64,000 bases of DNA, from positions 32,001 to 96,000 of the forward strand of contig JBCBUK010000010.1 of the NCBI GenBank assembly GCA_039818205.1, in the 5' to 3' direction. Source of the stretch: Verrucomicrobiota bacterium. Its GTDB lineage: Bacteria > Verrucomicrobiota > Verrucomicrobiia > Opitutales > Cerasicoccaceae. The translations under genes were made by a program, and so were the position numbers. Positions within the stretch are counted from its first letter, which is position 1. Each line of letters begins with the position of its first letter. The notes beneath the pieces are model-generated. The model saw only the letters and a list, made by a program, of their open reading frames with translations. It was not told the DNA's origin and ran no database searches. Of the stretch, positions 6,201 through 52,215 are shown piece after piece.

Positions 6201-6339
6201 ACTTGCGGAAAATCACCGAAAGTCCGTGAAAATGCAAGCGAGCTTCACTGGGAAGTCGCTGCGGAATTGTAATTGCTTTGTCCGGTAGCGGAACATCGCT
6301 GAGTGACGTCAGTCCAGATGTGCAGGAGCTATTTACTCT

Positions 6340-7221: not shown

Positions 7222-7239
7222 ATCGGGTTCACGGAAAAT

Positions 7240-7476
7240 CTATTCCGCTTTCTGGATCGCCTTCGCACCAACGGAAATGCCGCTGATCGCACCCGCGACG
7301 GGCACAATAAATAGGAGCGCGAGTAGGATGATCGCGTGAATGAAACCAGGTACCGCCAACTGCGCGCTCAACGGGATCAGGAAGACGACCGAAAAGGTAA
7401 AAGCAAGACAGGCGATAGCAAAAGAAATGCCGCACACGGTGAGTTTATCTTTCGCAGATTCTGGTAATTCGATCAT
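7240..7476 (-). CDS. small two-TM hypothetical protein
   Basis: 78-aa ORF with two hydrophobic helices, downstream of the ABC operon on the same strand. Confidence 0.55.
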   Translation of the reverse strand: MIELPESAKDKLTVCGISFAIACLAFTFSVVFLIPLSAQLAVPGFIHAIILLALLFIVPVAGAISGISVGAKAIQKAE

Positions 7477-7524
7477 GGATACAGTTTAGGACCGAATGCT
7501 GAACCTGTCAATGCCTGAACTAGT

Positions 7525-8367
7525 TTACCCTTTTCCGCCAGTCGTCGCGATTCCTTCGATGAAGTAACGTTGAGCAAAGAAGAAGAGTGCGATTACCGGA
7601 AGGATGACCAGCGTTGAGGCCGCCATGAGATAGTGCCAGGAGGTGCCCCCGGATTGGCTTTGGTAGGATTGTAGCCCCAGCGAGAGCGTAAAGTCCTGCT
7701 GATTGGTTAGGTAAATCAGCGGACCAAGAAAGTCATTCCAAGTGGCCATGAATTGGAACAGGGCCACAACAATAATTGCGGGTTTTGCCAATGGCAGGAT
7801 AATGCGGAAACAGATCTGGAGTTCCGAAGCGCCGTCAATGCGTGCCGATTCCGAGAGCTCTTTAGGAAGGGTTAGCATAAACTGCCGCAGGAGGAAAATG
7901 TTGAAGGCCCCCGCAAAGAAGGTTGGTACCCACAGGGGCTTGAAGCTGCCAATCCAACCGAGATCGCGAAAGACCAGGAAGATGGGAACCATAATGATGG
8001 GGAAGGGGATCATCATAGTGGCAAGGACAAGCATGAACGTCTTGTCGCGCCCGGGCCATTCGATACGAGAAAACCCGTAAGCGGCCAGGGTACTGCTGAT
8101 CACCGTTCCAATCACGGTCATCAAGCAGAGGTAAAGCGTGTTCCAGGTGTAGCGCCAAAACTCCCCCATCTCATCGATGGCCTGGGGATAGTTTTCCCAT
8201 TGCAGATCACTGGGTAGCCATTGTGGTGGCATCGCCATGGTTTCCTTGAGTGGCTTGAGGGAGGTGCTGACCATCCAGGCGAAGGGAGAAATAAAGACAA
8301 TGGCACCCGCGATCAGCATCAGGTAGATGCAGACGGTCTGAACACGTTGTGCGGTTTTGGCGGTCAT
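7525..8367 (-). CDS. carbohydrate ABC transporter permease (MalG-like)
   Basis: EAA motif ESARIDGAS; WNDFLGPLIYL; FFFAQRYFIEG. Confidence 0.95.
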   Translation of the reverse strand: MTAKTAQRVQTVCIYLMLIAGAIVFISPFAWMVSTSLKPLKETMAMPPQWLPSDLQWENYPQAIDEMGEFWRYTWNTLYLCLMTVIGTVISSTLAAYGFSRIEWPGRDKTFMLVLATMMIPFPIIMVPIFLVFRDLGWIGSFKPLWVPTFFAGAFNIFLLRQFMLTLPKELSESARIDGASELQICFRIILPLAKPAIIVVALFQFMATWNDFLGPLIYLTNQQDFTLSLGLQSYQSQSGGTSWHYLMAASTLVILPVIALFFFAQRYFIEGIATTGGKG

Positions 8368-9281
8368 TTGCCTGCGTAGTAGATGTGCCGCTCGGAGACC
8401 TTCGTTGCGAGCAAGGTTAAGGCAAGGATGATGAGGAACAGGATCAGCCCGATCGCGCAGGCATAGCCCATGCGCCAGTTTTCAAATGCGTTAAAGAAAA
8501 TGTAGGTCGCGGTGAAGAGCAGAGAGCGTCCAGGACCTTCTTGACCATCGGTCATGACATAGGGAACGGCGAAAACCTGGAACGACATGATTAGCGACAT
8601 GATGCCGTTGAAGTAGATGACTGGAGATATGATTGGCAGGGTGACGTGCCAGGTTTTTTGCCAGAAATTACAGCCATCGAGATCGGCGGCTTCATAGAGT
8701 GTTCGCGGAACATCTTGTAAGCCCGCGAGGAAAATCACCACCGCATTGCCCACTCCCCAGGCACTGGCAAATATCAACCCGAGCTTGGCAAACTCGGGAT
8801 CGACGAGCCAGTTGGGCGGCGCGACATCGGAGCCAAACAGGGCGTTTGCCGTATCCGTAATCGGACGCAGCACGGTGTTGACCAGGCCGAGCTGGCCATT
8901 GAGTAGCCATCGCCAAAGCACGCCAAGGCATACGAGTGGAACCAGGGAGGGGAGAAAGTATATCGTGCGGAAGATCTTTTTGCCGGGAAGGTCGAAGTTT
9001 AGCAGGATGGCCAAAAATAGGGCGATGATGAGATTGAGCGGAATCGAGATCGCGGCAAAGTAGATGGTGTTCCAAATGGATTTCCAAAACAGCTCGTCGG
9101 CCAACATATCGGAGTAGTTTTCCGTGCCGATAAAAACGGGTTTCGAAAGAACCGCGTAATCATGGAATGACAGATAGGCCGAACTCAAAAATGGGTAGAG
9201 GTTCAGCACCAGGAAGCCAACAATCCAGGGGCTGATAAACATGAGCCCCGTGCGCAGCCGTTGTCGTTCCTGTCGCGTCAT
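8364..9281 (-). CDS. carbohydrate ABC transporter permease (MalF-like)
   Basis: FLAGLQDVPRTLYEAADLDG; 4-bp overlaps with both neighbours. Confidence 0.95.
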   Translation of the reverse strand: MTRQERQRLRTGLMFISPWIVGFLVLNLYPFLSSAYLSFHDYAVLSKPVFIGTENYSDMLADELFWKSIWNTIYFAAISIPLNLIIALFLAILLNFDLPGKKIFRTIYFLPSLVPLVCLGVLWRWLLNGQLGLVNTVLRPITDTANALFGSDVAPPNWLVDPEFAKLGLIFASAWGVGNAVVIFLAGLQDVPRTLYEAADLDGCNFWQKTWHVTLPIISPVIYFNGIMSLIMSFQVFAVPYVMTDGQEGPGRSLLFTATYIFFNAFENWRMGYACAIGLILFLIILALTLLATKVSERHIYYAGK

Positions 9282-10678
9282 GGTTGTGTTTTATCCTCGA
9301 GCCGGGCATCTCTTACTTTGAGCCAGCGACGGTACGATTGATCAAAGAGTTTGCCTTGGCGACGTTGGACCGCCGCCGCTGCCTCTTCTGGGGTTAGGTT
9401 CTGGAGCGCTACTTGATCAAAGGCGTTCACCATGTCTCGATTGAAGTCCATGATGTTGGTTAGGCGTGACCGTCCCGAAGCGTAGGGACTCTCTGCGAGC
9501 TCACGGTAGATTTTGATCTTTGGGTTGGGATGGTTTTCGTAGAAGGATTCGCTGGTCTCCACGAGCGGGCTGAACTTCAGCTGTTTGGCGCAGAGCTTTT
9601 CGAGGTTTTCAGGTCGTTGCAACCACGACAGAAACTTAAACGCTTCCTGCGGGTGCTTGGCCCCGCGCGGGATCACAATCACATCGGTTTCGACGATGGC
9701 GACACCGTAGCGATCTGGGTCGGTTGACGGGAAAGGCGCGACTCCCCAATCGAAACTCTTGGGGGCGAATTTCTCGATGAAGTTATGCATCCAAGGGCCT
9801 TGGTGGACCATTGCGATACGGCCGTTGAAGAAAGGGTTTTCCGCGGAAGCAAAATTGCCGCTCGCCTGGCGAAAGCGCAGGAGTTCATCGGCGCCAAATC
9901 GTTCCGGGTAGCTCGCCATCCATTCCAGGGCCGCAATACTGGCATCGCTTTCGACGGTGATGGCGTCCTTGCGATTCCAAACATCGCCTCCGAACCAGTA
10001 GGCCCAATTGGGAAGCCACCAGCCGGGCTCTTGTGGGAGGTGTCCCAGCACCTCGATGTCTCCATCGTCGTCGAATCGAGTGATATGTTCGTTAAAGGCT
10101 TCGAGTTCGGCGATCGTTCTGGGTGGCTTCTCTGGGTCGAGCCCCGCTTCGCGAAACAAGTCTTTGTTCCAATGTAGGCCCGTTGCCCCGGGCGTTGATG
10201 GCAGGCCCCAGAGGCGGTCAAACTCGGTAAGCTCGCTCCAGATTGCGGGTAGGTAATCGCTTTCGTGGATATCGTGGGATGCTGCCAAGTCATCGAGCTG
10301 GGTGAGGGCTCCGTTGGCGGCAAAGATGGGGACGTTCATCGACCAGAGTCCGGCAAGGTCGGGCGGGTTCCCGCCAGCGGCGGCAAGCATGAGCTTTCGG
10401 CTAATGAAACTGATCGACAAGAACTCAACATAGATCTCGTTTTGAGACGCATTGAAGTCATCGACTAGGTCTTGCATCGCTTGATGCTCGGAGCCAGTCC
10501 ACTTATCCCAATACTGGATCACCACGCGGCCGTCTTCACGTGGATTCTCGCCGCAACCACTTAGCAGCACGAGCAAAGCGACCAATATAACTGGTACGCG
10601 GAACGAGATGGCTGAAAAACGTTTGCTCACAAGTAGATCGGTTGAGCTTGAAGACGGGAGCGTTGAGGGGCAATCCAA
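9278..10678 (-). CDS. sugar ABC transporter substrate-binding lipoprotein (start uncertain)
   Basis: Lipobox LLSGC, AGGNPPDL, WNKDLFREAGLDPEKPPRT, FFNGRIAM. Confidence 0.92.
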   Translation of the reverse strand: MDCPSTLPSSSSTDLLVSKRFSAISFRVPVILVALLVLLSGCGENPREDGRVVIQYWDKWTGSEHQAMQDLVDDFNASQNEIYVEFLSISFISRKLMLAAAGGNPPDLAGLWSMNVPIFAANGALTQLDDLAASHDIHESDYLPAIWSELTEFDRLWGLPSTPGATGLHWNKDLFREAGLDPEKPPRTIAELEAFNEHITRFDDDGDIEVLGHLPQEPGWWLPNWAYWFGGDVWNRKDAITVESDASIAALEWMASYPERFGADELLRFRQASGNFASAENPFFNGRIAMVHQGPWMHNFIEKFAPKSFDWGVAPFPSTDPDRYGVAIVETDVIVIPRGAKHPQEAFKFLSWLQRPENLEKLCAKQLKFSPLVETSESFYENHPNPKIKIYRELAESPYASGRSRLTNIMDFNRDMVNAFDQVALQNLTPEEAAAAVQRRQGKLFDQSYRRWLKVRDARLEDKTQP

Positions 10679-31332: not shown

Positions 31333-31402
31333 GGCCACCATAGCCTGGAAAAAAGCGTTGAGTCTCCAGATTGGGTTTGCCAATCTCTCTCGCTTTTCAC
31401 CC

Positions 31403-32549
31403 ATGCAAATCGAACCCGAAGTCCGCTCCCAGATCGAAGAAATCACCCGCCGCGCCGGTCATTTGTGGAGGTATCTTTGACGTCCCAGCGAGGCAAAAAC
31501 GCATCGCTGAGCTCGAGGAGCAGATGAGCGCGGCTAGCTTTTGGGATGACCAGAAGGCCGCGCAGGTCGTCATTGGCGAAAGCAACCAATGTAAACGAGC
31601 GATCGAGCCAATCATGCGCTTCCAGCCCAAGGTTGACGATCTGAACGCTTTGGTGGAGTTGGTTGAAGAGTCTGACGAAGCCGATGGCGCCGAATTTGTC
31701 GGCGAAATAACGGCTAGTACGAAGGAGCTCCTCTCCCAGATTGATGATCTCGAGATCCAATCCTTCCTCAGCGATCCGATGGATGGCAACAACGCCATTT
31801 TGTCCATCCAGGCTGGTGCTGGTGGGACCGAGAGCTGCGACTGGGCTGACATGCTATACCGCATGTATACGCGCTGGGCCGAGCGCCGGGGTTTCAAAAT
31901 TGAGGTCCTCGACCTTCAACAGGGCGAAGAGGCCGGGATATCCAGCGCGAGTTTGAAACTCGAAGGTCCCAACGCCTTTGGTTACGCGAAGGCTGAGCGG
32001 GGTGTCCACCGCCTTGTGCGAATTAGCCCGTTCGATTCAAATAGTCGCCGCCATACCTCGTTTTCCGCGGTCGATGTGGTTGCGGAGGTTGATGATGACG
32101 TGGATATCGAGATCCCGCCGGACGAAATCCGTATCGATACCCAGCGCGCCAGTGGTGCAGGCGGTCAGCACGTCAACAAGACCGAGTCCGCGATTCGTAT
32201 CACCCACTTGCCAACAAACATCGTTGTCTACTGCCAAACCCAGCGTTCTCAGCACAAGAACAAGGATCAGGCCATGCGTCAGCTCAAGTCGCGCCTCTAC
32301 GAAAAGGCCCTCGATGAGAAACGCTCCGAGATGGAGAAGTTCTACAGTGAGAAGGGCGAGATCGGTTGGGGAAACCAGATTCGCAGCTATGTCTTTCAAC
32401 CTTACCAGATGGTCAAGGATCTACGCACCGGCGTAGAAACGGGCAACGTCCAGGCGGTCATGGATGGCGACCTCGATGCCTTTGTAAACGGTTGGCTTCG
32501 CGCCGGGTGCCCTCGCCACCGCAATAAGGACGTCCAGCTCGACGACTAG
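31403..32549 (+). CDS. prfB: peptide chain release factor 2 with programmed +1 frameshift
   Basis: ATG 31403 gives [25 protein letters not shown], then CTT TGA C (31475-31481); the +1 frame carries SPF and GGQ. Confidence 0.97.
31467..31481 (+). promoter_or_regulatory. prfB +1 frameshift cassette
   Basis: GGAGG-tat-CTT-TGA-C: internal SD plus slippery site. Confidence 0.95.
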
Positions 32550-39107: not shown

Positions 39108-40505
39108 ATGGCAGATTACGATTTACTGGTGATTGGATCGGGACCGGGTGGCTATGTTGCTGCGATCCGTGGTGCGCAACTTGGGATGAAAACCGCCTTG
39201 GTTGAAAAGGATTCCTACCTCGGCGGAACCTGTTTGAACGTTGGCTGCATTCCCAGCAAAGCGCTGTTGCACTCCACCGAAGTCTTCCACTTCCTCCACG
39301 AACGTGGTGAGGATCATGGCATCAAGACCGGGAAGTTGACGAGCGATATTCCAGCACTGATGAAGCGTAAAGACGGCGTTGTGCAGCAGCTGCGCAATGG
39401 TGTTACCCAGTTGATCAAGGCGCGCAAAATTGAAGTCCTTGAAGGGCTTGGCTCGCTGGCAGGTGAGGGCAAGGTCAACGTTGAGGGGCCCAAGGGAGGT
39501 CAAACCGTCACGGCCACAAATATCATTATTGCAACGGGTTCAGTTCCGATTGAGCTGCCGTTCATGAAGTTTGACGGTAAGGTTGTTGTTTCCAGCGACG
39601 AAGCCATCGCTTTTGAGAAAATTCCCAAGAAGTTGGTCGTCGTTGGTGGTGGCGCGATTGGCCTCGAGCTTGGCAGCGTATGGTCACGGCTCGGAAGCGA
39701 AGTCACCGTGGTGGAGATGCTGACGCAAATCGCTCCTACTTACGACAAGGATGTTTCCAAAATGGCTGAGCGCTTGTTCAAGAAGCAGGGTATTCAGTTT
39801 GAGTTGGGCACCCGCGTCACGGGCGTAGCAAAGGAGGGGCGTAAGTCATTCCTTACCGCTGAGAAAGGCGAAAAAGATCTGAAGTTTGAAGCAGATAAAA
39901 TCTTGGTGGCCGTTGGGCGCAAACCAACCACCGACGGCCTTAACGCGGCCGCTGCGGGCGTCGAGCTCGACGAGAAGGGACGCGTAAAGACGGACGAGCA
40001 TTTCCGTACATCAGCCCCAGGTATCTATGCGATTGGCGACGTTGTTGCCGGCCCAATGCTCGCACACAAGGCCGAGGAAGAGGGGGTTGCGTGCGTCGAG
40101 TTGATCGCTGGCAAAGGTGGTCATGTGAACTACGACGTCATTCCCAATGTTGTCTACACAGAACCAGAAATCGCCTCGGTCGGAATTGGCGAAGACATGG
40201 CCAAGGAACAAAAGATTGCGGTATCGGTTGGCAAGTTTCCGCTTGCTGCGAATGGCCGCGCGATCGCAGTGGATTCAACCGATGGCTTTGTAAAAGTTAT
40301 TTCGGACAAGACAACCGATCGTCTCTTGGGCGTGCAAATTATTGCTAAGGGGGCCAGCGAGCTTATTGCTTCAGCGGTAACGCACATGGAGTATGGTGGC
40401 AGTGCTGAAGACCTGGGCCGCACAATTCATGCTCACCCAACCATGAGCGAGTCCATGAAGGAAGCAGGTCTTGCCGCGAACAAATCGGCAATCCACGCCC
40501 TCTAG
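39108..40505 (+). CDS. lpdA: dihydrolipoyl dehydrogenase
   Basis: [32 protein letters not shown]. Confidence 0.98.
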
Positions 40506-40506
40506 T

Positions 40507-41457
40507 TTATCTGCCTGCCTTCAGGCGTCGCAGACCAATTAATATCCAGTTCAGCGCCTCCGCACTCGTGGATGCGTTGAATAGGCGTTGATTCTCCTCG
40601 AGGCTGAGTCGATTCGACTCGCAAAGGCGCTTGATTACTGCGTTTGATTCTGATCCTAGCCTTCCGGCTGCTCGATGGAAATTATCCCAAATGCTTTCCA
40701 AATCAAGTGGTCTAAGATCAGAAGCTGGATCACGTAGCTCTTCGACATGGGTTACCGGATCTTGATAGCACTTAGCTAAATCCCCGTTCAGCTGAAAGTT
40801 GATTTGGCGGGGAATGCCTTCCAGTCTGTCGATCGCATACTCGGTAACGCCTCCAAACAGGCGAGAAAGATAGAGCGGTTTTTTAAGAGCGAGGCTCAAT
40901 AGAATCTCTTCTAGAACGCCCGGGGTCCGTCCCCATGGTGCCGATTGCAGGTTTCCCTCTATCATGTCCCGTCCGCCAAAAGCGATTCGGGCTGTAGATT
41001 CTTCAGTCATCTCGCGACGCATTACGCTAAGCGATACCGCCCGCTGGTAGGTTCCAAGGGCACCATCAGGAAGGTTGGGCGCGCTGGTATCAACGAGGTT
41101 CAGCACGCCCCTAATTTGGCGTTCGCGCCATTCCTCCAAGGGGTTCGCTGACCCATGGTATCGAAAGTTGTGAATTAGAGGATTCTTTCGTGCGTCCTCG
41201 TGGGCAAGAACGGCATCGTGAGCTTCAGCCATCTCATAGAGGGCTAGCATTACGCCATCGGCCCGCCAGTCATGACCGAAACAAACGGCGGCACCATGTG
41301 AGATTAATGTACGAGCGATCTCGAGGACCACCTCGTTCACTTGGTCTGCGCCGTAGCTCCATTTCGAAGGCTCGAGTGGGTTCGAAATGCCAACCGATAC
41401 GATCAGTCCGCCGAGGAGCGGGTCGGTATCGAAGTTTGATATCTGATCGAGACTCAT
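40507..41457 (-). CDS. SLOG-superfamily protein (LD_cluster2/3-like)
   Basis: VGIS...EIARTLISHGAAVCFGHDWR, SLSVMRREMTEESTARIAFGG, GRTPGVLEE, KKPLYL..FGG, LSLEENQRLF: pattern of TIR-associated SLOG domains. Confidence 0.75.
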   Translation of the reverse strand: MSLDQISNFDTDPLLGGLIVSVGISNPLEPSKWSYGADQVNEVVLEIARTLISHGAAVCFGHDWRADGVMLALYEMAEAHDAVLAHEDARKNPLIHNFRYHGSANPLEEWRERQIRGVLNLVDTSAPNLPDGALGTYQRAVSLSVMRREMTEESTARIAFGGRDMIEGNLQSAPWGRTPGVLEEILLSLALKKPLYLSRLFGGVTEYAIDRLEGIPRQINFQLNGDLAKCYQDPVTHVEELRDPASDLRPLDLESIWDNFHRAAGRLGSESNAVIKRLCESNRLSLEENQRLFNASTSAEALNWILIGLRRLKAGR

Positions 41458-42683
41458 GGCTGCAGCGAGGTTTGCATCACAATTTTCTGTGGAGTCGTGA
41501 GTATAATCGATCCTTGAAACGTATCAATCAAGCCTTTGACTGCTGGTGCAAAGACTCCGGTCAGTGGGGGATCTTGGTGGAGGATCATGTACCGATTGCC
41601 GCTGCCTGGTTGTAGGTCGCGAATCGCATAGGCAATCTGGCTCATTGAAGGTGGGTAAGGAATTACACTGCTCTGATTGAACTTCAGATTTGTTTGTTGC
41701 TGGTAGGCGTGAAAGAACCGTTCAAGTGCTAATCGCTTGATGTTTTCTCGGAACGCCGAAAACAATGCTCGAAACAAGTTGCCATCAGCCAGAGATACAG
41801 TGGGTGCACCGTCGTGGGTTAATCGGTCGGCGCCGCGCTCAAGTTGTTGCCGTATCTCAACGTTAACAAGGGGAACGCCATTGTCTCGAGCCCAGACAAA
41901 CTCTTGCCGACACCATGGGCGGGTGTCGTAGCCGTCAGTCCGAAGAACAACTATTGTTGAATCAGAAATGCCGCGTTTAATCTCGCTTCTCCAATCGTTG
42001 ACGCCCGCAAGATCTTTTGCGTCATACCAGGATGAGAATTCGGTTTGCCGATCGATCAATTGCTGCATTGCCCAAGCCAAGGGAAGTCCATCTTGTTTGG
42101 CATGGCTAAGAAATATCTGCAGCTTTCGACTCCGTCCAGAAGGTCCAGCGATCCCATGAAGCAATAGTCGTCGGGCTTGGCAGAGAGTGTATAGAGCAAA
42201 CCAGACTGTCCGTTCCTCGTTCTCCCCCCAGATGCAACTTCCTTGGCCATTGCTTCGTTTTTCGTCGAGATCTTCGCAACGGATATGTCCATCAATGACA
42301 TTGATGTATCGGGAGTTCAAATCACTCCGGATTTGTTTACCCATGGTCACGATGATTAGACCGTTGTCGGGATCTTTGAGGTTGGCAGCTAGCGGGTCCA
42401 ACCAATCTCGCTTCATCTGTTTGTTCGAATCCTCAGTTACAAAAACAACGAACAGCGAATGCATGGCCTTGTCGAGCAACGCTTGCTGGTCACATAGCGA
42501 GAGTGCTTGTGAGAGCTCCTGAACAGGAACGTCAAGTTTTTCTCCGCTGCGGAGGTAGGCATTTTCGGCAGAACGGTTTCCCTGGATGACATCTTTGATG
42601 CCGTCGAGAAACGGAGCGGCAGACAGGTCGCCGCTATCGCGCACCAGGAAAATTTGTAACGGTGGCCGGGCCAGTGGGTTCAT
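41454..42683 (-). CDS. TIR-domain protein (divergent N-terminal alpha/beta domain plus active-type TIR)
   Basis: IFLSHAKQDG...WYDAKDL...DWRSEI...VVLRTDGYDTRPWCRQE (catalytic Glu). ATG 42683 lies 5 bp after the upstream stop; ATGA overlap with the SLOG gene. Confidence 0.85.
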   Translation of the reverse strand: MNPLARPPLQIFLVRDSGDLSAAPFLDGIKDVIQGNRSAENAYLRSGEKLDVPVQELSQALSLCDQQALLDKAMHSLFVVFVTEDSNKQMKRDWLDPLAANLKDPDNGLIIVTMGKQIRSDLNSRYINVIDGHIRCEDLDEKRSNGQGSCIWGENEERTVWFALYTLCQARRLLLHGIAGPSGRSRKLQIFLSHAKQDGLPLAWAMQQLIDRQTEFSSWYDAKDLAGVNDWRSEIKRGISDSTIVVLRTDGYDTRPWCRQEFVWARDNGVPLVNVEIRQQLERGADRLTHDGAPTVSLADGNLFRALFSAFRENIKRLALERFFHAYQQQTNLKFNQSSVIPYPPSMSQIAYAIRDLQPGSGNRYMILHQDPPLTGVFAPAVKGLIDTFQGSIILTTPQKIVMQTSLQP

Positions 42684-42688
42684 TAGAC

Positions 42689-43843
42689 TTATTTTGCTTC
42701 GTCGATTGAGGTTCCACCAGTTGCCTCTCGGGCAATCTTCTCGAATGCTTTCGAATGCTTGTCGAGGCATGTTGCCAGATCAGTTAGTGCTGTTGGCGCC
42801 GCATTGACGAGACGTCCATGGATTTCTTCGAGTTCATCGATAGCCAATAGTCCGGCTTCGTCGGCGTCAGTAGCCCCGGGCGTTGGTAACAAGCCTCCGA
42901 TTCGCCAAGTGATGTTTCGAATGAGTTCCTGAAGACGTTTTGTGATTGGATCAAAGATCAGGGTATTTGTCTGCCAGCTTGAGCATTGGGCTGAGAACCC
43001 GGCCATTTCAACCGAGAGCAACCAACAGGTCTGGCGATGCTCAAGAGAAGGAGCACCTTTTATGGCAGCATCCCAGCGTTCGAATTCGCCTAGATCTTCT
43101 TCTGAAATATCTGGCTGGGTTCCAGCGAGACTCGCTGATTCGGAAACCATGTTTTCGTAGCCCGGAATGTTTGCGGCATTACCGAGGTTCTTTGCATATT
43201 CAGCTGCGATTGCGCGCATCTTCTCGAGATCCCTGCGGCATATGGCATTGAGCGGCCAGTCGGCTTCACCGAGATTTGTGCCCTCCCAATCCTGCAATCT
43301 CGGGTGCCAACGACTGAGATAGGGGCGAACGGCGTGGTTCAGCATTCGATGACAGATCGATTCCAAGGTAATTGCGGTTTTCTGCGTGTTCGACGGAGTC
43401 GGAGGCATTTCCTTGAGCTCATCACGAACAATTTGGAAAAACTGATACAGAGAATTAAGCGCTTCGCGGATGTTCCCATCTTCATTGTTAAGGGGTTGGA
43501 TAACCGTCCGGGTTGTCATCTCATGGAAAATCCGCCGAGCAGCCGCCCGCTGCGGATTGCCGAGTTGAACCTTGGTGGCACCAAGAATCGGGATATTCAT
43601 CTCAACTTCGCTGACACCAAGAGGCGAGAGCATTTGTCGATAACCCGCTATCAATGGGCCTGCGATAAACGGTAAACTGCCCGCCAACGCGCCTAGAATT
43701 AGTATCATAAATCCGGTACTAACCCACCATTCTGTTTCGGATAGGTCGCCAGACGCAGTGTCGATTACCTTTGTGATTGCGATGAAGAGGGCGACGCCGC
43801 CTCCCAGGGCAAATCCAACAAGAAAACGTTGTATCTTTGACAT
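42689..43843 (-). CDS. two-TM protein with an uncharacterised, internally duplicated helical domain
   Basis: 384 aa; two N-terminal hydrophobic helices, then EMTTR..QPL...NIREALNSLY...LNHAVRPYLSRWHPRL; first gene of the left operon. Confidence 0.75.
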   Translation of the reverse strand: MSKIQRFLVGFALGGGVALFIAITKVIDTASGDLSETEWWVSTGFMILILGALAGSLPFIAGPLIAGYRQMLSPLGVSEVEMNIPILGATKVQLGNPQRAAARRIFHEMTTRTVIQPLNNEDGNIREALNSLYQFFQIVRDELKEMPPTPSNTQKTAITLESICHRMLNHAVRPYLSRWHPRLQDWEGTNLGEADWPLNAICRRDLEKMRAIAAEYAKNLGNAANIPGYENMVSESASLAGTQPDISEEDLGEFERWDAAIKGAPSLEHRQTCWLLSVEMAGFSAQCSSWQTNTLIFDPITKRLQELIRNITWRIGGLLPTPGATDADEAGLLAIDELEEIHGRLVNAAPTALTDLATCLDKHSKAFEKIAREATGGTSIDEAK

Positions 43844-44244
43844 CTTAACAAATCTTGGTACCTAGAAGGTGCAATAATGTCACGATCAAAGGTGTTACAA
43901 TAATAAAACGCTAGGACCTAATTCCTAACTATTTGAATTATTAAGCTCAGGTAATTGACATCGATTTGCCTCTGGAAAACATTTAAGTGACTTCGTATTT
44001 CTTGGTAAGAATTGGTCTAATTTTTGCTAAATTATCCCTTACCTCCAAATGCGTGGTCTAGGTGCCGTTGGATGATTTCTAATTTTTAAGGTTAGGCCTT
44101 CTCTGGGCATTTTTCACCAGAATGGGTTTGCTGAGAGCGCCTAGTTTTATCGATCCGGCAAAAATTACCCAAGCCAATCGGAAAAACTTGAATATTTCTT
44201 TACAAATTATACTTACTATCAATTAACCTACTAATACTCCTGCG

Positions 44245-44412
44245 ATGATCTTGGACTCCAGCCATTGTTTAATGCTGATGCCGCCACCACGACTCCCGTT
44301 GGAGTACGGACTCTGTTGGGTGTCGGTTATCCTTGTTCTGGTGGCGTTCATAATGCGCCCGGTGGAATTTCTGGCATCTTTAGAAGCGGAGGACGGGTTA
44401 TCTTTTCGTTAG
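44245..44412 (+). CDS. possible 55-aa single-TM peptide (not in track)
   Basis: MILDSSHCLMLMPPPRLPLEYGLCWVSVILVLVAFIMRPVEFLASLEAEDGLSFR*, bracketed by a 10-bp inverted repeat. Confidence 0.3.
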   Translation: MILDSSHCLMLMPPPRLPLEYGLCWVSVILVLVAFIMRPVEFLASLEAEDGLSFR

Positions 44413-44455
44413 GAGTATTAAAGGAACAGCCTTCACATATTGATCGAATCTAGCA

Positions 44456-45958
44456 ATGTCCGGGGACACTCCATATAGCGGTGAATCATTCAGGAATGAC
44501 GTTTTCGTTAGTTATTCGCACGGCAAAGAATTGGCTGAAAGCGGCCAATCTCATTTGAAACTGTGGTCGGATGTTCTTATTTCCAATTTAAAGGAATACA
44601 TCAGCGTGCCGCTTAGAAGTGCTGATGTTAAGATATGGAATGATGGTAAACTTCCTCCGAATTCGCCAATAACTGATACGATAAAAGAGGCGGTTGAAGG
44701 CTCAGCGATCCTCGTGGTAATCCTGACTGATTCTTACTTGCGCTCGGATTGGTGTAAGGCTGAGCGGGAATGGTTTGCATCAGAGGTAAGTCGTCGAGGA
44801 GGTGGTTCTGGTTTAGAAAGCGTGTTTGTCATTCGAGCCACAAATATCGAGCATGAGAAGTGGCCTGATTTTTTAAAAGACGAATCAGGCGAGCCGTCGC
44901 TTGGTATCAACTTTTGCGACCGGAAATCAAACTTTCCTTATGGATTTCCCGATCCGAATAAGGCCAAGGATCAGGGAGACTTTTATGCGTCACTGTCCAA
45001 TTTAGGTCCCAGTGTTGCCCGCGCGCTAGAGAAAGTAAAAAGCGAGTTTGAGAAAGCCCGCTCGGCCGCGAAACCAGCTGTCGCCAATAGGCCAATCGTA
45101 CGTACTGTCTATGTCGCGCCGGGTACTGAGGATGTCCGAGGCGCATTGAAGTCGATTCGTGAAAAGTTGACTCAGCGCGGCATCAAGGTAGCGCCTTCTG
45201 AAATGGTCGCGATTGATCAGATTCACGGACAGGTGACCAATGAAGTATTTGGGCAGGCTCGGGCATTTGTGCAATGCTTCGGTTATATGGCTGCGCGGAC
45301 ACCAGAAATGATCAGCCGTGTAGAGCGTCTACACAAGCTTGCTTGTGAACAGAATCTTCCTCGCTTTCTCTGGCGTGATTCGAAGATTGATATTGATCTG
45401 CTCAGTTACGATCTCGAGTACAAAAACTTTATCCAGCGATTAGTTCCGGACATTCAAATGGACATAGATGTTCTGGTAGAAGAGCTTTGCAGTAAACTAC
45501 AAGAAATTCAGCTCCCCGAAGATGGGGGTTTCTCCTCGACGGCTTATATGGAGATACCTTCCGAGGTTTATCATGAGTTTGATCGTTGGCGTAAAGATAT
45601 CCAGGTTCCGGATTGCGTTGTCTTTCCTCTTACACCTCCTCAGAAAGGCGGCATGAGTGAGATCTCCAAAGAGCGGCGCGCCAAGCAGTTGATTTATGAG
45701 GAGTGTAATGTGATCTTGCACCTCTACTGTGTTAAAGGCCAGTTGAAGTGGATGAGGGATTCGATCATAAATTCGGAAAAAGTAAAGACCAGGATTGACT
45801 GCCCTCAGAGTGCGCACCCGACAAATCTTATCGTCGATTATACGGATGAGACCGATACTGAATTGGTCGCTCAAACAATAGGCGTTCCGTTTTGTCGCCG
45901 AAGGGAAGGGGAGGATAGTGCTGCCCTTTTGTCCGCAATCAAGAAAGCGATTCGATGA
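44456..45958 (+). CDS. TIR-domain protein with additional divergent alpha/beta domains
   Basis: DVFVSYSH...IWND...AILVVILTDSYLRSDWCKAE (catalytic Glu); second unit begins RTVYVAPGTEDVR; ATGA overlap with the STAND gene. Confidence 0.88.
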   Translation: MSGDTPYSGESFRNDVFVSYSHGKELAESGQSHLKLWSDVLISNLKEYISVPLRSADVKIWNDGKLPPNSPITDTIKEAVEGSAILVVILTDSYLRSDWCKAEREWFASEVSRRGGGSGLESVFVIRATNIEHEKWPDFLKDESGEPSLGINFCDRKSNFPYGFPDPNKAKDQGDFYASLSNLGPSVARALEKVKSEFEKARSAAKPAVANRPIVRTVYVAPGTEDVRGALKSIREKLTQRGIKVAPSEMVAIDQIHGQVTNEVFGQARAFVQCFGYMAARTPEMISRVERLHKLACEQNLPRFLWRDSKIDIDLLSYDLEYKNFIQRLVPDIQMDIDVLVEELCSKLQEIQLPEDGGFSSTAYMEIPSEVYHEFDRWRKDIQVPDCVVFPLTPPQKGGMSEISKERRAKQLIYEECNVILHLYCVKGQLKWMRDSIINSEKVKTRIDCPQSAHPTNLIVDYTDETDTELVAQTIGVPFCRRREGEDSAALLSAIKKAIR

Positions 45959-48900
45959 GTGGTGCGAGCAGCAAGTCTGATGGCGTGCAAGCGTCCGCTG
46001 TAATCCGCCGGAATCCGTATCCAGGGTTGCGACCGTTTCAAGTTGACGAGTGGTCGATATTTTTTGGCCGCGAGCGTATGATTGATGACGTTATCGAGCG
46101 CATGGGTGAATCTCAATATGTGGTCATTCATGGGGCCTCTGGCAGTGGTAAGTCTTCTCTTATTCGTGCTGGCGTGATTGCCCAGTTGCAGCGGGAGCAC
46201 CAGAGCCGAGGTCTTGATTGGCGACCAGCGGTGATGATGCCTGGCAGTTCGCCGATGTGGCATTTTGCCACAGCACTCTTAACCGCGCTTTCTTCTGACG
46301 ATCATGATGAACCTTGGAAGATCGCGCAGACGCGAGTTCGCCTCAGTATGGGTTCTGATGGAGTTGCGGACCTTCTACAGGAAGCGGGCTTTGGTCCGGA
46401 CCAGCGCTTGTTCATTCTCGTTGATCAGTTTGAGGAAATTTTTCGATTCGCCGATGAAGGTGGCGTTGAAGAGGCGACGGAGTTTATTGAGCTTTTGGTT
46501 GACCTTCACCGACATCCTTTGTCCGGGGTCTATCTGGCAATGACCATGCGCTCAGACCATATTGGCGAGTGTTCCCGTTTCTCTGGTCTCTCGGAAGTGG
46601 TCAACAACTGCCAATATTTGGTTCCACCAATGGAGGAACGCGAGTTGATCGAGGCCATATGCCGACCAGCATCAATCGAGTGTGGTCACGTTTCGGAAGG
46701 GCTGGCCCTAAGGCTGATCAAAGACACGCGGCATACTCCGGATCAACTGCCATTGATCCAACACGCACTGTGCTACATGTGGGCTTTGGAAGTGGATGAA
46801 GCGCCAGATCAGAACCCGACTCTTAACCTTGACGACTATGCAAGAGATCAAATCGGCTCAGTTACACATGCTCTTTCGAACCACGCCGATGAGGCATTGA
46901 AGGAGTTGGCTTCAGATGGTCGTCCAACCTTGGACGCGGCGGAGCATGTTTTTCGAGCATTGACGCAGGTAGATAGTTCTGGGCGAACCATTCGGCGGCG
47001 ACTGGGAAGAAAGAAGCTACTTGGTGAAGTTAGTTGTTCTGAGGCAGTTCTAGATCGAGTCATCAAGGTTTTTGCGGCATCCAATCGTACGTTTCTGTTT
47101 CAGGAAAAAGAAAATCCGGAGATGGATCCGAAGGTCGATATTTCCCATGAATCCTTAATTCGCCACTGGGAAAAACTAGAGGACGATTCTATTGATCCCA
47201 AGACTGGACGACCTGGCGGATGGGTGAGTCGGGAAGCTTATGATGGCGCTGTTTGGCACGGGCTGGTTGCGACGGTTACCAGTGCCCCTCGACCATCGGA
47301 AGCCCAGCTTCCAAAGATTGTTTATGAGCGTCGGCAGGAATGGTGGCATTCGCGAAATCCTAATGCCAAATGGGCGCAGCGCCATGGTGGTCATTTCGAT
47401 GAAGTTAAGGAACTACTCAGCCGAAGCCGAAAGAAAATCGAAGATGATGAGCGCCGCCAGCGAGAGACGGAGGAAGCCAAAGAAGCTGCACGCCGGAAAG
47501 CCAAGTTTTTGGCCTGGATCGCGTCGGTTTTCGCAGTAATTGCGATTGGGATGGCGATTTTTGCCGCTAAAAAGAATTTTCAATTGCGGGAGTCGCTTGT
47601 GAACGCTGAGCGCCTCGTAGTAAGTGAGCGAGCGGCGTTGGACGAAGCGAATAGAGCCAAGAATGCCGCGTATGCATCAAAGGACAAAGCGATTAAATCT
47701 GAGGAGATGGCGATCAATGCGTTGCGGAGGCAATGGCAGTTGACATTGGACAAAGCAGACGCGTTTAAGGACGATCCAGTGGTCCGTTCGCTAATCGCGC
47801 TTGAGTTCCTTCCTGACGCCAGTGTCGAGGACGATGATCGTAAGAATTATCCTAGTATTCCTAGAGTAGAACAGGAGTTGAGAGAGGCGCTGAGCGCCGA
47901 AGCTCGGGTAGCGGTGGTCTACGAGGACCAGGAATTTGCTCAGACGATCGAGTCATTGGATTTCAATTATGATGGCAGTCAGATCGCGATGGTGTCCGAT
48001 CGTGGAGAAACCGTGCGAGTTATTGATGCATCGTCCAAGGATACCATCTCGAAAATTGAGGGAGAGTTCCGCGAGTTCGAACAGGTGAAATTTGGGCCGT
48101 TTGGATCCCGCATTGCTGTTACTCGCGATTTGTCTGGGAAATGGAGTATATTCGATGCGAAATCCGGAGTTGAGGAGCAAATGCTAGATTTTGGCCCCGA
48201 TATCGATGCTCTTGCCTGGTCGCCTGATGGTGGCCAAATCGTGACCGGGTCCATCGATGGATCGCTCCGCATTTGGGATGTTGGTAAAGACGTTCCGACA
48301 TTGGATGTTAATGTTTCCAGTATTCCAATTAGTTGGGTCGAGTTTGATTCGACGGGATCCAAGATCGTCGGTGGCCTCTATGACGGAGAATTGTTTTTTT
48401 GGGATATCGAAAAATCTGAGCGACCACAGATAATTGTGTCTGGATCAAGTCGGTTAGTGGCCGGAGCCTTGCTCCCGGATGGAAATTCTATAGTAAGGTT
48501 GTCCGATAAGGGTCAGGTGGATTTGGTCGACCTGGCATCTTCCGAGGTGAAATTGGTTACCAAAATCGATTCGGTTGGTCGCTCACTTGCGGTTGCTCCC
48601 TTTGGGCGTTGGATTGCAATTGGCTGCTCGGATGGTCGGGTTAAGATCGTCGATCTTGATAATACGAATCCAGTCGAAACGACCGATACTCTAGGGCGAG
48701 AAGTTGATGCACTTTCATGGTCTGTGAAGGGAAATTCGATGGCAGCAGGGACCTACGATGGTTCGCTTGCGATAATAAGTTTTTATACTCCAGAAGAGGA
48801 AGTGAAGGGAAAGAACCTGGAGAGCATGACAACCCAAGAACTTGTTGAGTTCGCCCAGGCGTCTCTTCCTTATTGCTTTAGCGAGAATGAACGAAAGCGA

Positions 48901-51900
48901 CTAGGGCTTAGTGAAGCGGTTCCTGATTGGTGCCGTGAAGAGCGTGCCTACCCGTTTGATGCATCCGGTCGAATGGCTCGTGCATTGGGGTTGCTCCCGG
49001 GTTTCCCAAAAAAATCTCACGATCAATTCAATGATGCGCTATTCCTTGCCGGCGATGGACAAAGCCTGGACATGATTCATGCGATTAAGAAAGGGGCCAT
49101 GCTGAGGGCCCTGACTCAGCTTTCGGATGGAGCGAAAAGCCCCTCAGAATTTAACTCGAGAAAGAAGCGCCTTGATGAATTCATTCAGCTGGCAACAGAA
49201 TTGGAGTTAGCCCCGGAATCTCAACTTAAGGACGCTGAGGTCGCTTTTCTGGTTGAATCGTCTCGGAATGTCATGCGGCATGACCGAACGAACGAACCTT
49301 TGAGTAGTAAGTGGTTGGCAGATGCGCGGGCAATTGATCATTCGGGCTCCTTAGAGGCGCGTTGGCGCTTAACGCTTGATGATGCCCGAAATTTAGCGAT
49401 AGAGGAGGAGACGGACGAAGACGCCGAAGCTGGGGTGGATCCGATCGTAGAAATTCTCATTGCTCTTGAGTTCCTACCAGCTGAAAATGCAGACATTGAT
49501 TCAGTGCCCGAGATTGTAGAATCTCTCCAAAGATCACTGCTCAACCTAAGGAACCAGCCAAGCATTGAGCGAAACATTGTCCACTCATTTGATGATGAAA
49601 TTGAAATGCTCGATATTGACGCCGATGGTCGAGCTGTTGTGCATTTTCAAGACCATGATGTCTTGTATGGGAAATCGATTGATAGTGGCCAAAGCGGGGA
49701 ATACTTTAAGCTATCAGTTGGGAATTTGAGTGCGATAGAGTTTAGTCCGAATAATTCACGGCTGCTCGTCTCTTCTTATGATGGCTTTATCGAAGTGCTG
49801 GATCCGAATAGTGGCGATCGACAGATAGATCCGATTGAAGCCCATGCGAAGGTCGTTGATGCTGTTTGGCTTTCTGACACGGAGATCGTCTACGCAACTG
49901 ATGAGGCCGTTTTCATCCGAAACCTTGATGACGTTAACCGTGTCGAAAAGCTTGAGGTTTTTGAAGAGCCAGTTTTCTTAAACGTACACCCGGAATCGAA
50001 AAAGTTACTAGTTGCTTCATCTGGCATGGCAACTGTCTGGGAATTGGATGGCGCCCCGTTTTACTCAAATTTTTCCCCTGAAGGATACTTAGGCTTTCTA
50101 CATGCTGAGTGGGCTGATGATGGAAATTTCCTTATTACGGTCGACGATGGTGACAGATTTGACATATGGCAGAAGCCAGACAACAAGCGCAGAGACTCGG
50201 GCTATGTATTAAGAGAAGTTCCGTTTGAACAGAGATTTTGGGAAGTCAACGCGATCGATGTGTCACGGGATGGACGCTGGTTGGTTATTGGAAGCGAAGA
50301 TTATTATCTCGATTTCTATGATCTGAAAGAACAACGGTTTGTCGCTGAGGCGAAAGTGGATGACGCTATAGTTTTTTTAGAATGGTCAGACTCCGGTGAA
50401 AGTGTGAACTGTTCTACCAGCGATGGAAGTATCATTCGATTTGACTTCTTCACGGTTGGGCAAAACTACCAACATCAGATTGAAGAACTTGTCGCTGGTC
50501 AAAACGTAGCGTCGGATCGCTCAGGCAAGAAAGGTCCGGGTTCAAGCCTTGTCGATCTGGCACGTAATGTCGTTCCTTACTGTTTCGGAGAGTGGGACCG
50601 AGAAAGCTTGCTTCTCGATGAGGAAATTCCTGATTGGTGTATTACTTGGAAGAAGCCACCGTTTGACTTTAGGGGTAGAGTGGATAGGGCATCCGAACTT
50701 ATGAATGGAGGAGAATCGGAAGTGGCCGATGCCTTCCGAATTTTCAAGGAATTGGAGATGTCACATCCCGAATCATTTGAAGCGATTCAGAAAGAGCGAC
50801 TCGCCTCTGTGCAGAGTCGATTGTCACAGTTGTCCGGGGATGCAGATAGCTATATTCGTTTCCAAGAGAAACTTTCAAAATTGGAGGGTTTCACTGAGCA
50901 GGTTAATGCCGTGCATCCTGAAATGGAGCTCGATTTTGATTACTATCGCTTCGAGCTCGCCGAAGGTGCGGCAAAGCAGTTACTGGAATACGATCAGATC
51001 GAGGGGGCTCGACAAGCCTTTGCAATAGCACTTGGCTATCGGCCGGAGCTAAAGGATCGGATCGTGTTATCTCACGCCGAAGCGGCCCTATCTCGAGGTG
51101 AGCTTGGCGTTGCGTTGTTACTCGCGCTTGAGGTTGCTGATTCAAATCCGGATGCGAAAGAATTCCTGGCGCGTTACCTATCATTGGACGGGCCGACTCA
51201 GCGTTGGCCTATCTCAGAATCTCCAATCATTGGTATCAGCGTTGATCCTGAGAATGGAGCTTACCTTGCGTCTGGTGGTTCTGAGGTTTATCGTTGGAAC
51301 CCAGAGAGTGAAGATTCCGAATTGTTACTAGGGGACGTTTCTGACGCTGGTCGAATCGCGTTGAGCCCCGATGGTAGTCGATTTATCGTGGGGAGTAGCC
51401 TCCTTCTTCCGCGTATCTGGGATTTCCCATCGGGTGATACCTCGGCGGTGCTGGAAACAAACGCTGGAGATAGTATCGGCGCTGCTTGGTCAAGTAATGG
51501 TGAACTCATTGCGCTGTCGGACGGTTTTGATGGCGGAACGTATATCTTTAACTCGGAGTCGGGAATTGCCGAAGCAACCCTCAAGGGGGCGAATACGAGC
51601 GACTACGGTGTTTGCTTTTCGCCAGTTGATGAGAAACTCGTTTTGACCGGAGGTAGCGGGTTGCTTCAGATTTGGGACATTTCAAGTGCTAGTCCGATAT
51701 TCACGTTAGAAGTCGACGAAAACATAGAGATTTACGACGTGGACTGGTCCGTTGATGGTGATCGAATTGTATATTGCGGTGAAAATGGCACTGCCGGTCT
51801 TCTAATTAGAGACGAAAACGGCAATTGGAAGAACACCCACGAGTTCGATCATAACTCTGAAGTCGTTTTTTCAGTAGCTTTTGATTCGACTGGCGAGCTT

Positions 51901-52215
51901 TTCGCTACTGGTAGTGAGAATGGAATTATGGTTTGGGATACAACGAGCGGAGATTTGATTCGGCGATTGGTCGATACTCAGCTTGATCCGGATGATGAAG
52001 AAGCGGTTCCGATTGTCGTAAAATGGGCGTCGGATGGTAACATCTATGCGGGAATGGCCAGTGGAAATCTGTTAGTGTTTAATGGGCACGGACTGGATTC
52101 TACTGATGAGGCAGAAAGTGTTGTTGAACGTGCTCGCGATCGTGTTGAACGGGAACTGACAGAAGAGGAGCGTTGGCTCTACAACCTTACCGAAAAACAG
52201 CCAGGTAAGTCTTGA
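45955..52215 (+). CDS. nSTAND1-type NTPase-TM-triple WD40 beta-propeller protein (2086 aa)
   Basis: NPYPGLRPF...FFGRE, Walker A GASGSGKSS, Walker B ILVDQFEE, QLPLIQHAL, ISHESLIRHW, TM FLAWIASVFAVIAIGMAIFAA, many WD-like repeats (e.g. LAWSPDGGQIVTGSIDGSLRIWD). Confidence 0.92.
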   Translation: MSGASSKSDGVQASAVIRRNPYPGLRPFQVDEWSIFFGRERMIDDVIERMGESQYVVIHGASGSGKSSLIRAGVIAQLQREHQSRGLDWRPAVMMPGSSPMWHFATALLTALSSDDHDEPWKIAQTRVRLSMGSDGVADLLQEAGFGPDQRLFILVDQFEEIFRFADEGGVEEATEFIELLVDLHRHPLSGVYLAMTMRSDHIGECSRFSGLSEVVNNCQYLVPPMEERELIEAICRPASIECGHVSEGLALRLIKDTRHTPDQLPLIQHALCYMWALEVDEAPDQNPTLNLDDYARDQIGSVTHALSNHADEALKELASDGRPTLDAAEHVFRALTQVDSSGRTIRRRLGRKKLLGEVSCSEAVLDRVIKVFAASNRTFLFQEKENPEMDPKVDISHESLIRHWEKLEDDSIDPKTGRPGGWVSREAYDGAVWHGLVATVTSAPRPSEAQLPKIVYERRQEWWHSRNPNAKWAQRHGGHFDEVKELLSRSRKKIEDDERRQRETEEAKEAARRKAKFLAWIASVFAVIAIGMAIFAAKKNFQLRESLVNAERLVVSERAALDEANRAKNAAYASKDKAIKSEEMAINALRRQWQLTLDKADAFKDDPVVRSLIALEFLPDASVEDDDRKNYPSIPRVEQELREALSAEARVAVVYEDQEFAQTIESLDFNYDGSQIAMVSDRGETVRVIDASSKDTISKIEGEFREFEQVKFGPFGSRIAVTRDLSGKWSIFDAKSGVEEQMLDFGPDIDALAWSPDGGQIVTGSIDGSLRIWDVGKDVPTLDVNVSSIPISWVEFDSTGSKIVGGLYDGELFFWDIEKSERPQIIVSGSSRLVAGALLPDGNSIVRLSDKGQVDLVDLASSEVKLVTKIDSVGRSLAVAPFGRWIAIGCSDGRVKIVDLDNTNPVETTDTLGREVDALSWSVKGNSMAAGTYDGSLAIISFYTPEEEVKGKNLESMTTQELVEFAQASLPYCFSENERKRLGLSEAVPDWCREERAYPFDASGRMARALGLLPGFPKKSHDQFNDALFLAGDGQSLDMIHAIKKGAMLRALTQLSDGAKSPSEFNSRKKRLDEFIQLATELELAPESQLKDAEVAFLVESSRNVMRHDRTNEPLSSKWLADARAIDHSGSLEARWRLTLDDARNLAIEEETDEDAEAGVDPIVEILIALEFLPAENADIDSVPEIVESLQRSLLNLRNQPSIERNIVHSFDDEIEMLDIDADGRAVVHFQDHDVLYGKSIDSGQSGEYFKLSVGNLSAIEFSPNNSRLLVSSYDGFIEVLDPNSGDRQIDPIEAHAKVVDAVWLSDTEIVYATDEAVFIRNLDDVNRVEKLEVFEEPVFLNVHPESKKLLVASSGMATVWELDGAPFYSNFSPEGYLGFLHAEWADDGNFLITVDDGDRFDIWQKPDNKRRDSGYVLREVPFEQRFWEVNAIDVSRDGRWLVIGSEDYYLDFYDLKEQRFVAEAKVDDAIVFLEWSDSGESVNCSTSDGSIIRFDFFTVGQNYQHQIEELVAGQNVASDRSGKKGPGSSLVDLARNVVPYCFGEWDRESLLLDEEIPDWCITWKKPPFDFRGRVDRASELMNGGESEVADAFRIFKELEMSHPESFEAIQKERLASVQSRLSQLSGDADSYIRFQEKLSKLEGFTEQVNAVHPEMELDFDYYRFELAEGAAKQLLEYDQIEGARQAFAIALGYRPELKDRIVLSHAEAALSRGELGVALLLALEVADSNPDAKEFLARYLSLDGPTQRWPISESPIIGISVDPENGAYLASGGSEVYRWNPESEDSELLLGDVSDAGRIALSPDGSRFIVGSSLLLPRIWDFPSGDTSAVLETNAGDSIGAAWSSNGELIALSDGFDGGTYIFNSESGIAEATLKGANTSDYGVCFSPVDEKLVLTGGSGLLQIWDISSASPIFTLEVDENIEIYDVDWSVDGDRIVYCGENGTAGLLIRDENGNWKNTHEFDHNSEVVFSVAFDSTGELFATGSENGIMVWDTTSGDLIRRLVDTQLDPDDEEAVPIVVKWASDGNIYAGMASGNLLVFNGHGLDSTDEAESVVERARDRVERELTEEERWLYNLTEKQPGKS

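Follow-up and report, generated by a model that had tools for sequence, protein, structure and literature searches.

We analysed a window of 64,000 nucleotides (nt) from a Verrucomicrobiota bacterium (contig JBCBUK010000010.1, positions 32,001 to 96,000), in which two TIR genes, a SLOG gene, a gene for a protein with two transmembrane helices (2TM) and an nSTAND1-WD40 gene form an accessory island. On balance these five genes probably, though by no means surely, encode a TIR second-messenger defence circuit of the type III Thoeris/LD_cluster2 kind, in which a SLOG-gated TIR stands beside a membrane effector gated by a domain named D here. The TIR-SLOG part was already known in outline. Separate TIR and SLOG genes, as found in the window, are the ordinary, majority form of a widespread anti-phage-like signalling pair. 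New here are the fusion range of D, its oligomer model, its linkage counts in both directions and its tie to the LD_cluster2 module. The island consisted of the following features.

42689..43843, minus strand: 2TM-D-D' protein, 384 amino acids (aa), with two N-terminal membrane helices, a beta-hairpin, D and a degenerate D'; candidate membrane effector
41454..42683, minus strand: TIR protein, 409 aa, with a flavodoxin-like N-terminal domain, a catalytic-type TIR (E261) and a small C-terminal alpha/beta domain
40507..41457, minus strand: SLOG protein of the LD_cluster2 family, 316 aa, a chain of its own (PF18163, E 1.4e-22)
43844..44455: intergenic region between the divergent arms, 612 nt, AT-rich (40% GC)
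44456..45958, plus strand: 500-aa protein with an N-terminal TIR (TIR_2, E 5.5e-9) and Glu103 in WCxxE; candidate signal producer of the divergent arm
45955..52215, plus strand: nSTAND1 NTPase, 2086 aa (nSTAND1, E 9.5e-81), with a membrane segment and WD40 propellers; candidate pattern sensor

The three minus-strand open reading frames were those of the first-pass annotation, which had been made from the sequence alone. Their arm was co-directional and tightly packed. The gap from the 2TM stop to the TIR start (Met at 42683) was 5 nt and, as that annotation had noticed, the SLOG was unfused and its start overlapped the TIR stop, by 4 nt (ATGA). In the divergent arm, the nSTAND1 start overlapped the stop of the 500-aa TIR gene by 4 nt. 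GC content at third codon positions was 0.47-0.53 in the five genes and 0.59-0.67 in the flanking genes. None of 20 relatives had a DNA match inside the island, though most flanking genes matched there. These two results identified the genes at 40507-52215 as an accessory island.

The TIR protein and its SLOG partner

The longest frame of the TIR gene was 438 aa and opened at 42770. Judging from the homologues, which begin at the Met at 42683, the protein most likely starts there and has 409 aa. It matched TIR_2 with 38 bits (cut-off 28, E 2.7e-9), and the catalytic Glu261 was invariant across 17 TIR sequences. The AlphaFold2 (AF2) model, with a pLDDT of 83.7, comprised three alpha/beta units, namely the N-terminal domain, the central TIR and the small tail. 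The best structural match of the central TIR was the SARM1 TIR (Z 13.7, root-mean-square deviation 2.5, 123 aligned). Foldseek with the full model returned multi-domain matches and was uninformative. The N-terminus had been described earlier as a divergent alpha/beta region of about 190 aa that might be an inactive TIR. The region itself was borne out, as it fitted the 42683 start and was modelled as a five-stranded, flavodoxin-like fold. Its TIR origin was shown neither by structure, where receiver/flavodoxin-type chains were the best matches (Z up to 9.9), nor by profile, where three TIR alignments gave only 0.6-3%. It is possibly an inactive TIR. The motifs noted in the C-terminal tail proved to be conserved, with P345 and P373 nearly invariant in the 17 sequences, and the tail was modelled as a small alpha/beta domain.

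The SLOG fold, on which the first-pass annotation had staked its reading beforehand, was recovered with the Pfam hidden Markov models. LD_cluster2 (PF18163) matched with 80.9 bits against a cut-off of 25.3, and no other Pfam family, STALD, TPALS and LD_cluster3 included, matched at E ≤ 0.1. Compared with 119 homologues, the protein retained the family positions G-D-R, R, GG, PG-EE and FGG. None of the PADLOC models matched the SLOG or the 2TM protein.

A locus search with a single TIR sequence returned nothing. Searches with TIR alignments succeeded and gave 160 TIR-anchored loci (the best 80 of 112 and the best 80 of 188). A first classification counted 103 split, 42 fused and 14 cut-off loci, and one without SLOG. 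With refined profiles, every one of the 147 classifiable loci had a SLOG, which was the next gene in 103 and fused in 44. The other 13 of the 160 were unclassifiable, nearly all being interrupted by a contig end. The same 4-nt overlap as in the window recurred in 36 of the 103 split loci. In a tree of 140 distinct sequences, the split or fused state changed 9 times, and shuffles gave at least 31 changes. The window protein and that of L015, both split, were sister to four fused proteins, and the surrounding clade was mostly split (with a midpoint root, so that the direction is not proven). Fused homologues such as P0013 exist, as had been stated in the earlier annotation. Its suggestion that the window holds a special, derived split version found no support, in view of the majority of split loci, the recurring overlap and the mostly split neighbours. 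Given this constant pairing, fused or split, the SLOG is best interpreted as a subunit of the 409-aa TIR protein, not as a free protein. The catalytic Glu was present in 132 of the 147 module TIRs; 15 had no match to the motif, and none carried another residue. PF18163 was found in 6 of 301 genomes of the same phylum.

Partner TIR genes were frequent around the module. Of the 77 loci flanked by 3 kb or more on each side, 60 had a further TIR gene within 3 kb, and the sampled TIR neighbours were ThsB_TIR, TIR-WD40, TIR-TPR and TIR-nSTAND1. In L084, homologues of both divergent genes of the window (the 500-aa TIR and the nSTAND1-WD40 protein) followed a fused module. TIR-nSTAND1 genes flanked the module in L030 and L034, and an nSTAND1 gene adjoined it in L035. 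Because of the homologues in L084 and the TIR-nSTAND1 genes in L030 and L034, the divergent arm is the likely sensor half. Its two genes probably fill the role of the further TIR here, and the three-gene arm is probably not self-contained. In many Bacteroidota loci, moreover, the pair was immediately preceded by two or three small TIRs and D was missing, which suggested that the pair itself is probably an output.

Two groups of loci are recorded beside these. In L043, L040, L044, L048, L049, L053 and similar Bacteroidota loci (about 5000-9600), two to three small TIRs were followed by the long TIR and the LD_cluster2 SLOG, and D was absent. Such loci, from Flavobacterium and relatives, are compact candidates for a type III-like Thoeris. 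In L046, L057 and L172, the module was flanked by Nmad2 and a gene for a 5-hmdU DNA kinase helical domain (by Pfam on L046), pointing to a link with modified-nucleotide systems.

The mobile domain D

The 2TM protein had no Pfam, PADLOC or NCBIfam match at E ≤ 0.1. Its AF2 model (pLDDT 88) placed helices at H3-29 and H36-75, where hydropathy also showed two N-terminal hydrophobic helices. They were followed by a beta-hairpin (78-94), the four-helix D (about 95-230) and a second bundle, D' (about 265-377). The second copy was intact in P0006; in the window protein it was degenerate and was not detected by the D profile. The cytoplasmic part of the protein is a distinct mobile domain, which had been overlooked in the first-pass annotation.

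A profile search gave 995 representatives of D at 50% clustering. Among the 150 listed, 114 had one copy, 33 two, 1 three and 2 four. Two predicted transmembrane (TM) helices preceded D in 77 of the 150, a fraction biased by the TM part contained in the profile. The fusion partners were patatin, a Tle1-like lipase, a calcineurin-like phosphoesterase (metallophosphoesterase; above the Pfam cut-off in one of two proteins), TIR, TIR-AAA, the LD_cluster2 SLOG and membrane helices. Stand-alone D proteins had about 160 aa. An invariant motif, N-x3-RP-x4-WH, was D's own. Foldseek with the 2TM model gave no match at E ≤ 0.001. A fold assignment was rejected, as only generic four-helix bundles were returned, the best with Z 12.4 to a designed protein and within the expectation for helical bundles, and the rows mostly concerned the second bundle. 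A HEPN identity, raised by an R-x6-H spacing resembling the HEPN motif, was supported by no search. In P0148 and P0161, D was N-terminal and the LD_cluster2 SLOG C-terminal, with a metallophosphoesterase-like, hydrophobic middle (a weak Pfam match in P0161 only). These two proteins are candidates for an enzyme with two sensors.

Linkage was counted in both directions. A D gene was found in 13 of the 77 well-flanked module loci, mostly adjacent to the module. In L145, a fused TIR-SLOG gene was followed after 62 nt by a 2TM protein with four D copies, the same 2TM-tandem-D type as in the window. In the case of 23 loci found through D alone (D-first loci), 18 had a TIR gene nearby; the random control gave a TIR gene in 36 of 5000 12-kb windows of the bacterium's own genome. 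This bore out the expectation in the annotation that the 2TM gene family is linked to TIR and SLOG genes. A full TIR-SLOG module was present in 4 of the 23. Five had no TIR, including two on contigs that were short or ended nearby and one with a partial SLOG-D fusion slightly below the Pfam cut-off. In six D-first loci a ThsB_TIR (Pfam) gene adjoined D, which is the classic Thoeris layout. The D-first set left out L191, L201, L213, G080:C8 and G081, which were reached through the module, as well as two near-duplicate Streptomyces plasmids and the weak, N-terminal-only matches L176, L177 and L183.

Some D loci were elaborate. In L016 (5119-11787) and L017 (3283-12823), a fused TIR-SLOG gene was flanked by D-patatin and by a Tle1-like lipase with a C-terminal D. 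L017 carried an additional Tle1-like gene, and the two represent a lipase-rich variant with two D genes. A Calothrix plasmid (L188:2314-12272) had two stand-alone D genes, AAA/STAND genes and three TIR-bearing genes, one of them annotated as GUN4-containing. On the rhizobial plasmids L225 and L226, D-patatin (889 aa and Pfam-confirmed in L226) lay amid four to six TIR genes; L225 also had uracil-DNA glycosylase and nucleoside triphosphate pyrophosphohydrolase genes.

Self-association of D was predicted. Four copies of residues 76-232 gave a head-to-tail association with a score of 0.57, compared to 0.26 for the best of three controls; of 30 solved homodimers, 20 attained the mark used for this score, as did 1 of 23 monomers, and the mark is rough here. 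The runs agreed in at least 85% of contacts with a pLDDT of at least 79. The predicted interface consisted of F136, R140, L143, N169, R173, P174, H180 and G123, all nearly invariant in the family. The self-assembly, together with ThsB-like TIR neighbours and fusions to lipases, phosphoesterases, TIR and TM helices, makes D look like a second-messenger receptor. By analogy, it may be likened to SAVED and STING, the receptors for cyclic oligonucleotides.

Relation to Thoeris systems

Type III Thoeris (van den Berg et al. 2024) is summarised in secondary sources as several TIRs with a SIR2-less, non-STALD SLOG (bioRxiv 10.64898/2025.12.03.692087, 10.64898/2026.01.22.701046, PMC13276650). The window agreed with these summaries in having multiple TIR proteins (two TIR genes on opposite strands, with two to three extra in many relatives) and a non-STALD SLOG without SIR2, here LD_cluster2 only. 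The view of the first-pass annotation that the gene order is non-Thoeris was thus not supported, as far as the secondary sources describe type III. However, the window gave only 27.7 bits to the ThcB4 equivalog NF058526 (cut-off 220), over the TIR only, and module TIRs of relatives gave at most 52.3 bits. It also differed from the type III of these summaries in having no NucS match at E ≤ 0.1 among the Pfam families listed and in adding the 2TM-D gene and a divergent nSTAND1-WD40 sensor. With ThcB4 and NucS failing, the window system appears to work like type III Thoeris as summarised and is best called type III-like.

Other known systems were more distant. In type I Thoeris (ThsA with SIR2-SLOG/STALD, and ThsB), the SLOG is likewise tied to an NAD-cleaving domain and separate TIR signal producers lie nearby; here, in contrast, TIR replaces SIR2, LD_cluster2 replaces STALD, and two chains are usual. 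No island protein matched SIR2, STALD or ThsA in Pfam and PADLOC. The 2TM protein had no Macro or SLATT match at E ≤ 1, these being the effectors of types II and VII. The 2015 work of Burroughs et al. is said to have described LD_cluster2 with patatin or with a protein that combines an active TIR with an inactive one. Both associations, with patatin and with a catalytic-type TIR protein, were found again in the present loci. The family is the same in Pfam; the window has the 2TM-D gene in the place of patatin. In the set of literature searched, which did not include the two most relevant papers, no paper named LD_cluster2/PF18163 with TIR or described D.

A closer comparison was made with ThsG. 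The preprint of Yirmiya et al. (bioRxiv 10.64898/2025.12.03.692087) identifies DUF6650 as ThsG, the effector that responds to 2'cADPR in type VI Thoeris. Some ThsG proteins carry N-terminal TM helices and others lack them, and the modelled assembly is a hexamer whose pockets lie between subunits. D resembled ThsG, as presented there, in being small, helical and a partner of TIRs, in occurring both with and without N-terminal TM helices and in having a predicted homo-oligomer. It differed in having no PF20355 match, an invariant motif of its own and fusions to many enzymes. PF20355 (DUF6650) did not match the window protein at E ≤ 1, and it was absent from searches of the bacterium's genome and of the 301 genomes of its phylum. 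In the Atlas, the D query returned DUF6650 with scores of 0.81-0.83 (below 0.9, a weak lead only), and the DUF6650 query returned apparently the same unnamed cluster as D, of the same length and size. In hhalign, small alignments (27 vs 45 sequences) gave 0.7%, and a block shuffle scored higher. Larger alignments (223 vs 67 sequences) gave 17% with a pairwise E of 0.0014, which 0 of 40 shuffles reached; the profile alignment was collinear over 145 columns, end to end, and not significant by HH-suite standards. The DUF6650 sequence set was one narrow clade. On these profile comparisons, the chance that D and DUF6650 are remote homologues may be put at roughly even or a little better. The preprint also lists 29 putative effectors, including phospholipases, TM proteins and unknown domains, and D proteins may be among them. 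In L196 (1480-1978), a DUF6650 gene was apparently spread over two reading frames.

The proposed circuit, its alternatives and its surroundings

In the proposed circuit, the nSTAND1-WD40 protein would sense infection and activate the 500-aa TIR, which would produce a NAD-derived signal. The SLOG would bind this signal and switch on the 409-aa TIR, by analogy with the SLOG acting on SIR2 in ThsA, and the activated TIR would deplete NAD or amplify the signal. In parallel or downstream, the D domains of the 2TM protein would bind a TIR-made ADP-ribose (ADPR) derivative at the head-to-tail subunit interface, and, by oligomerising, would cause the two helices to breach the membrane. A more specific version is tentative. 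It would make D a modular receptor for a TIR-made ADPR derivative and a remote sister of ThsG, in which ligand-driven head-to-tail assembly activates the attached enzyme or helices. Here, an NLR-like sensor, the SLOG-gated TIR and the tandem-D protein would then form a two-step cascade, with the SLOG converting or amplifying one signal into that of D.

Several points weigh against the circuit. The coupling between D and SLOG is loose, since D was missing from 64 of the 77 well-flanked module loci and the module was present in only 4 of the 23 D-first loci. In 13 of the 77, neither a partner TIR nor D was found. The arms are divergent here, and the only locus with homologues of both divergent genes, L084, was without D. 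The likeness to ThsG was weak in both hhalign comparisons (0.7% and 17%), and the interface alone explains the conserved D residues without a ligand. The oligomer prediction used four copies, unlike its calibration set; the TIR control was a single TIR-poor genome; and the locus set, seeded from a single short motif, consists of relatives and holds some redundancy. In addition, one secondary source has type III Thoeris working without abortive infection and thought to act via a NucS domain, and NucS had no Pfam match at E ≤ 0.1 in the island (in the four shorter proteins, and among the best 25 of 57 families for the 2086-aa protein).

The likelihoods of the circuit and its alternatives overlap in part and do not sum to one. 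D might be an adaptor that acts through homotypic contacts, as described for effector-associated domains (EADs; Kaur et al. 2020, PMC7159879), with D-D contacts linking proteins and no small-molecule ligand. The conserved residues lining the predicted interface, the TIR-D and TIR-AAA-D fusions, the two D genes per locus in L016, L017 and L188 and the tandem D in 36 of the 150 listed representatives would fit this. We consider it unlikely, as one D gene adjoins a D-less TIR in most loci (L192, L219, L221, L223, L224, L228), the bacterium's own genome has one D gene only, and the window 2TM protein had no Pfam EAD match. About equally doubtful is a stack of two independent TIR systems, in which 2TM-D would serve the divergent TIR/nSTAND1 arm as its effector, unrelated to TIR-SLOG. 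Two loci without SLOG, with 2TM-D directly before TIR-WD40 (L186) or near a TIR gene (L187), agree with such a stack. Defence genes cluster, and multiple effectors per Thoeris island are reported in the Yirmiya preprint (bioRxiv 10.64898/2025.12.03.692087). However, D often directly adjoins the module, whatever its fusion partner, and at least two proteins join D and LD_cluster2 in one chain.

The self-contained three-gene circuit of the first-pass annotation, in which the 409-aa TIR would make the signal and SLOG or D would relay it to the membrane protein, fared somewhat worse and appears improbable. The co-directional genes with their 5-nt gap and 4-nt overlap, the D-SLOG fusions and 4 of the 77 loci with module and D but no partner TIR within 3 kb (L025, L059, L092, L125) are consistent with it. 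Nevertheless, a partner TIR was present in 60 of the 77, including 9 of the 13 with D, homologues of the divergent genes follow the module in L084, the SLOG tracks TIR rather than D, and pairs of ThsB and D exist without SLOG. A role outside anti-phage defence, in housekeeping or developmental nucleotide signalling, is very improbable. The SLOG and 2TM proteins indeed match no PADLOC model, but the distribution was patchy (PF18163 in 6 of 301 phylum genomes, island absent in 20 relatives) and the module neighbours were ThsB_TIR, Nmad2 and STAND genes.

According to the Yirmiya preprint (bioRxiv 10.64898/2025.12.03.692087), neither the signal nor the output of type III Thoeris is known, and killing by TM-less ThsG is unclear; the locus family offers handles on both. 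The widespread TIR-SLOG pair lends itself to purification, either as a single chain or as two. Fusions of D to patatin or TIR, enzymes whose activity can be measured, would report directly and biochemically on the ligand, as ThsA did for 3'cADPR.

The surroundings of the island were also inspected. No common insertion site was found, as in two relatives lpdA and the kinase gene lay on separate contigs and the genes following lpdA differed. Between the arms (43844..44455), promoter-like matches numbered 3 against a shuffle mean of 4.2, and the promoter and terminator scans were at chance. The SLOG and lpdA stops were 1 nt apart, head to head (40505-40507), leaving no room for a terminator. In a prfB-like reading frame at 31371-32549, the N-terminus at its opening looked unrelated, for which a programmed frameshift of the usual kind, if present, would account.

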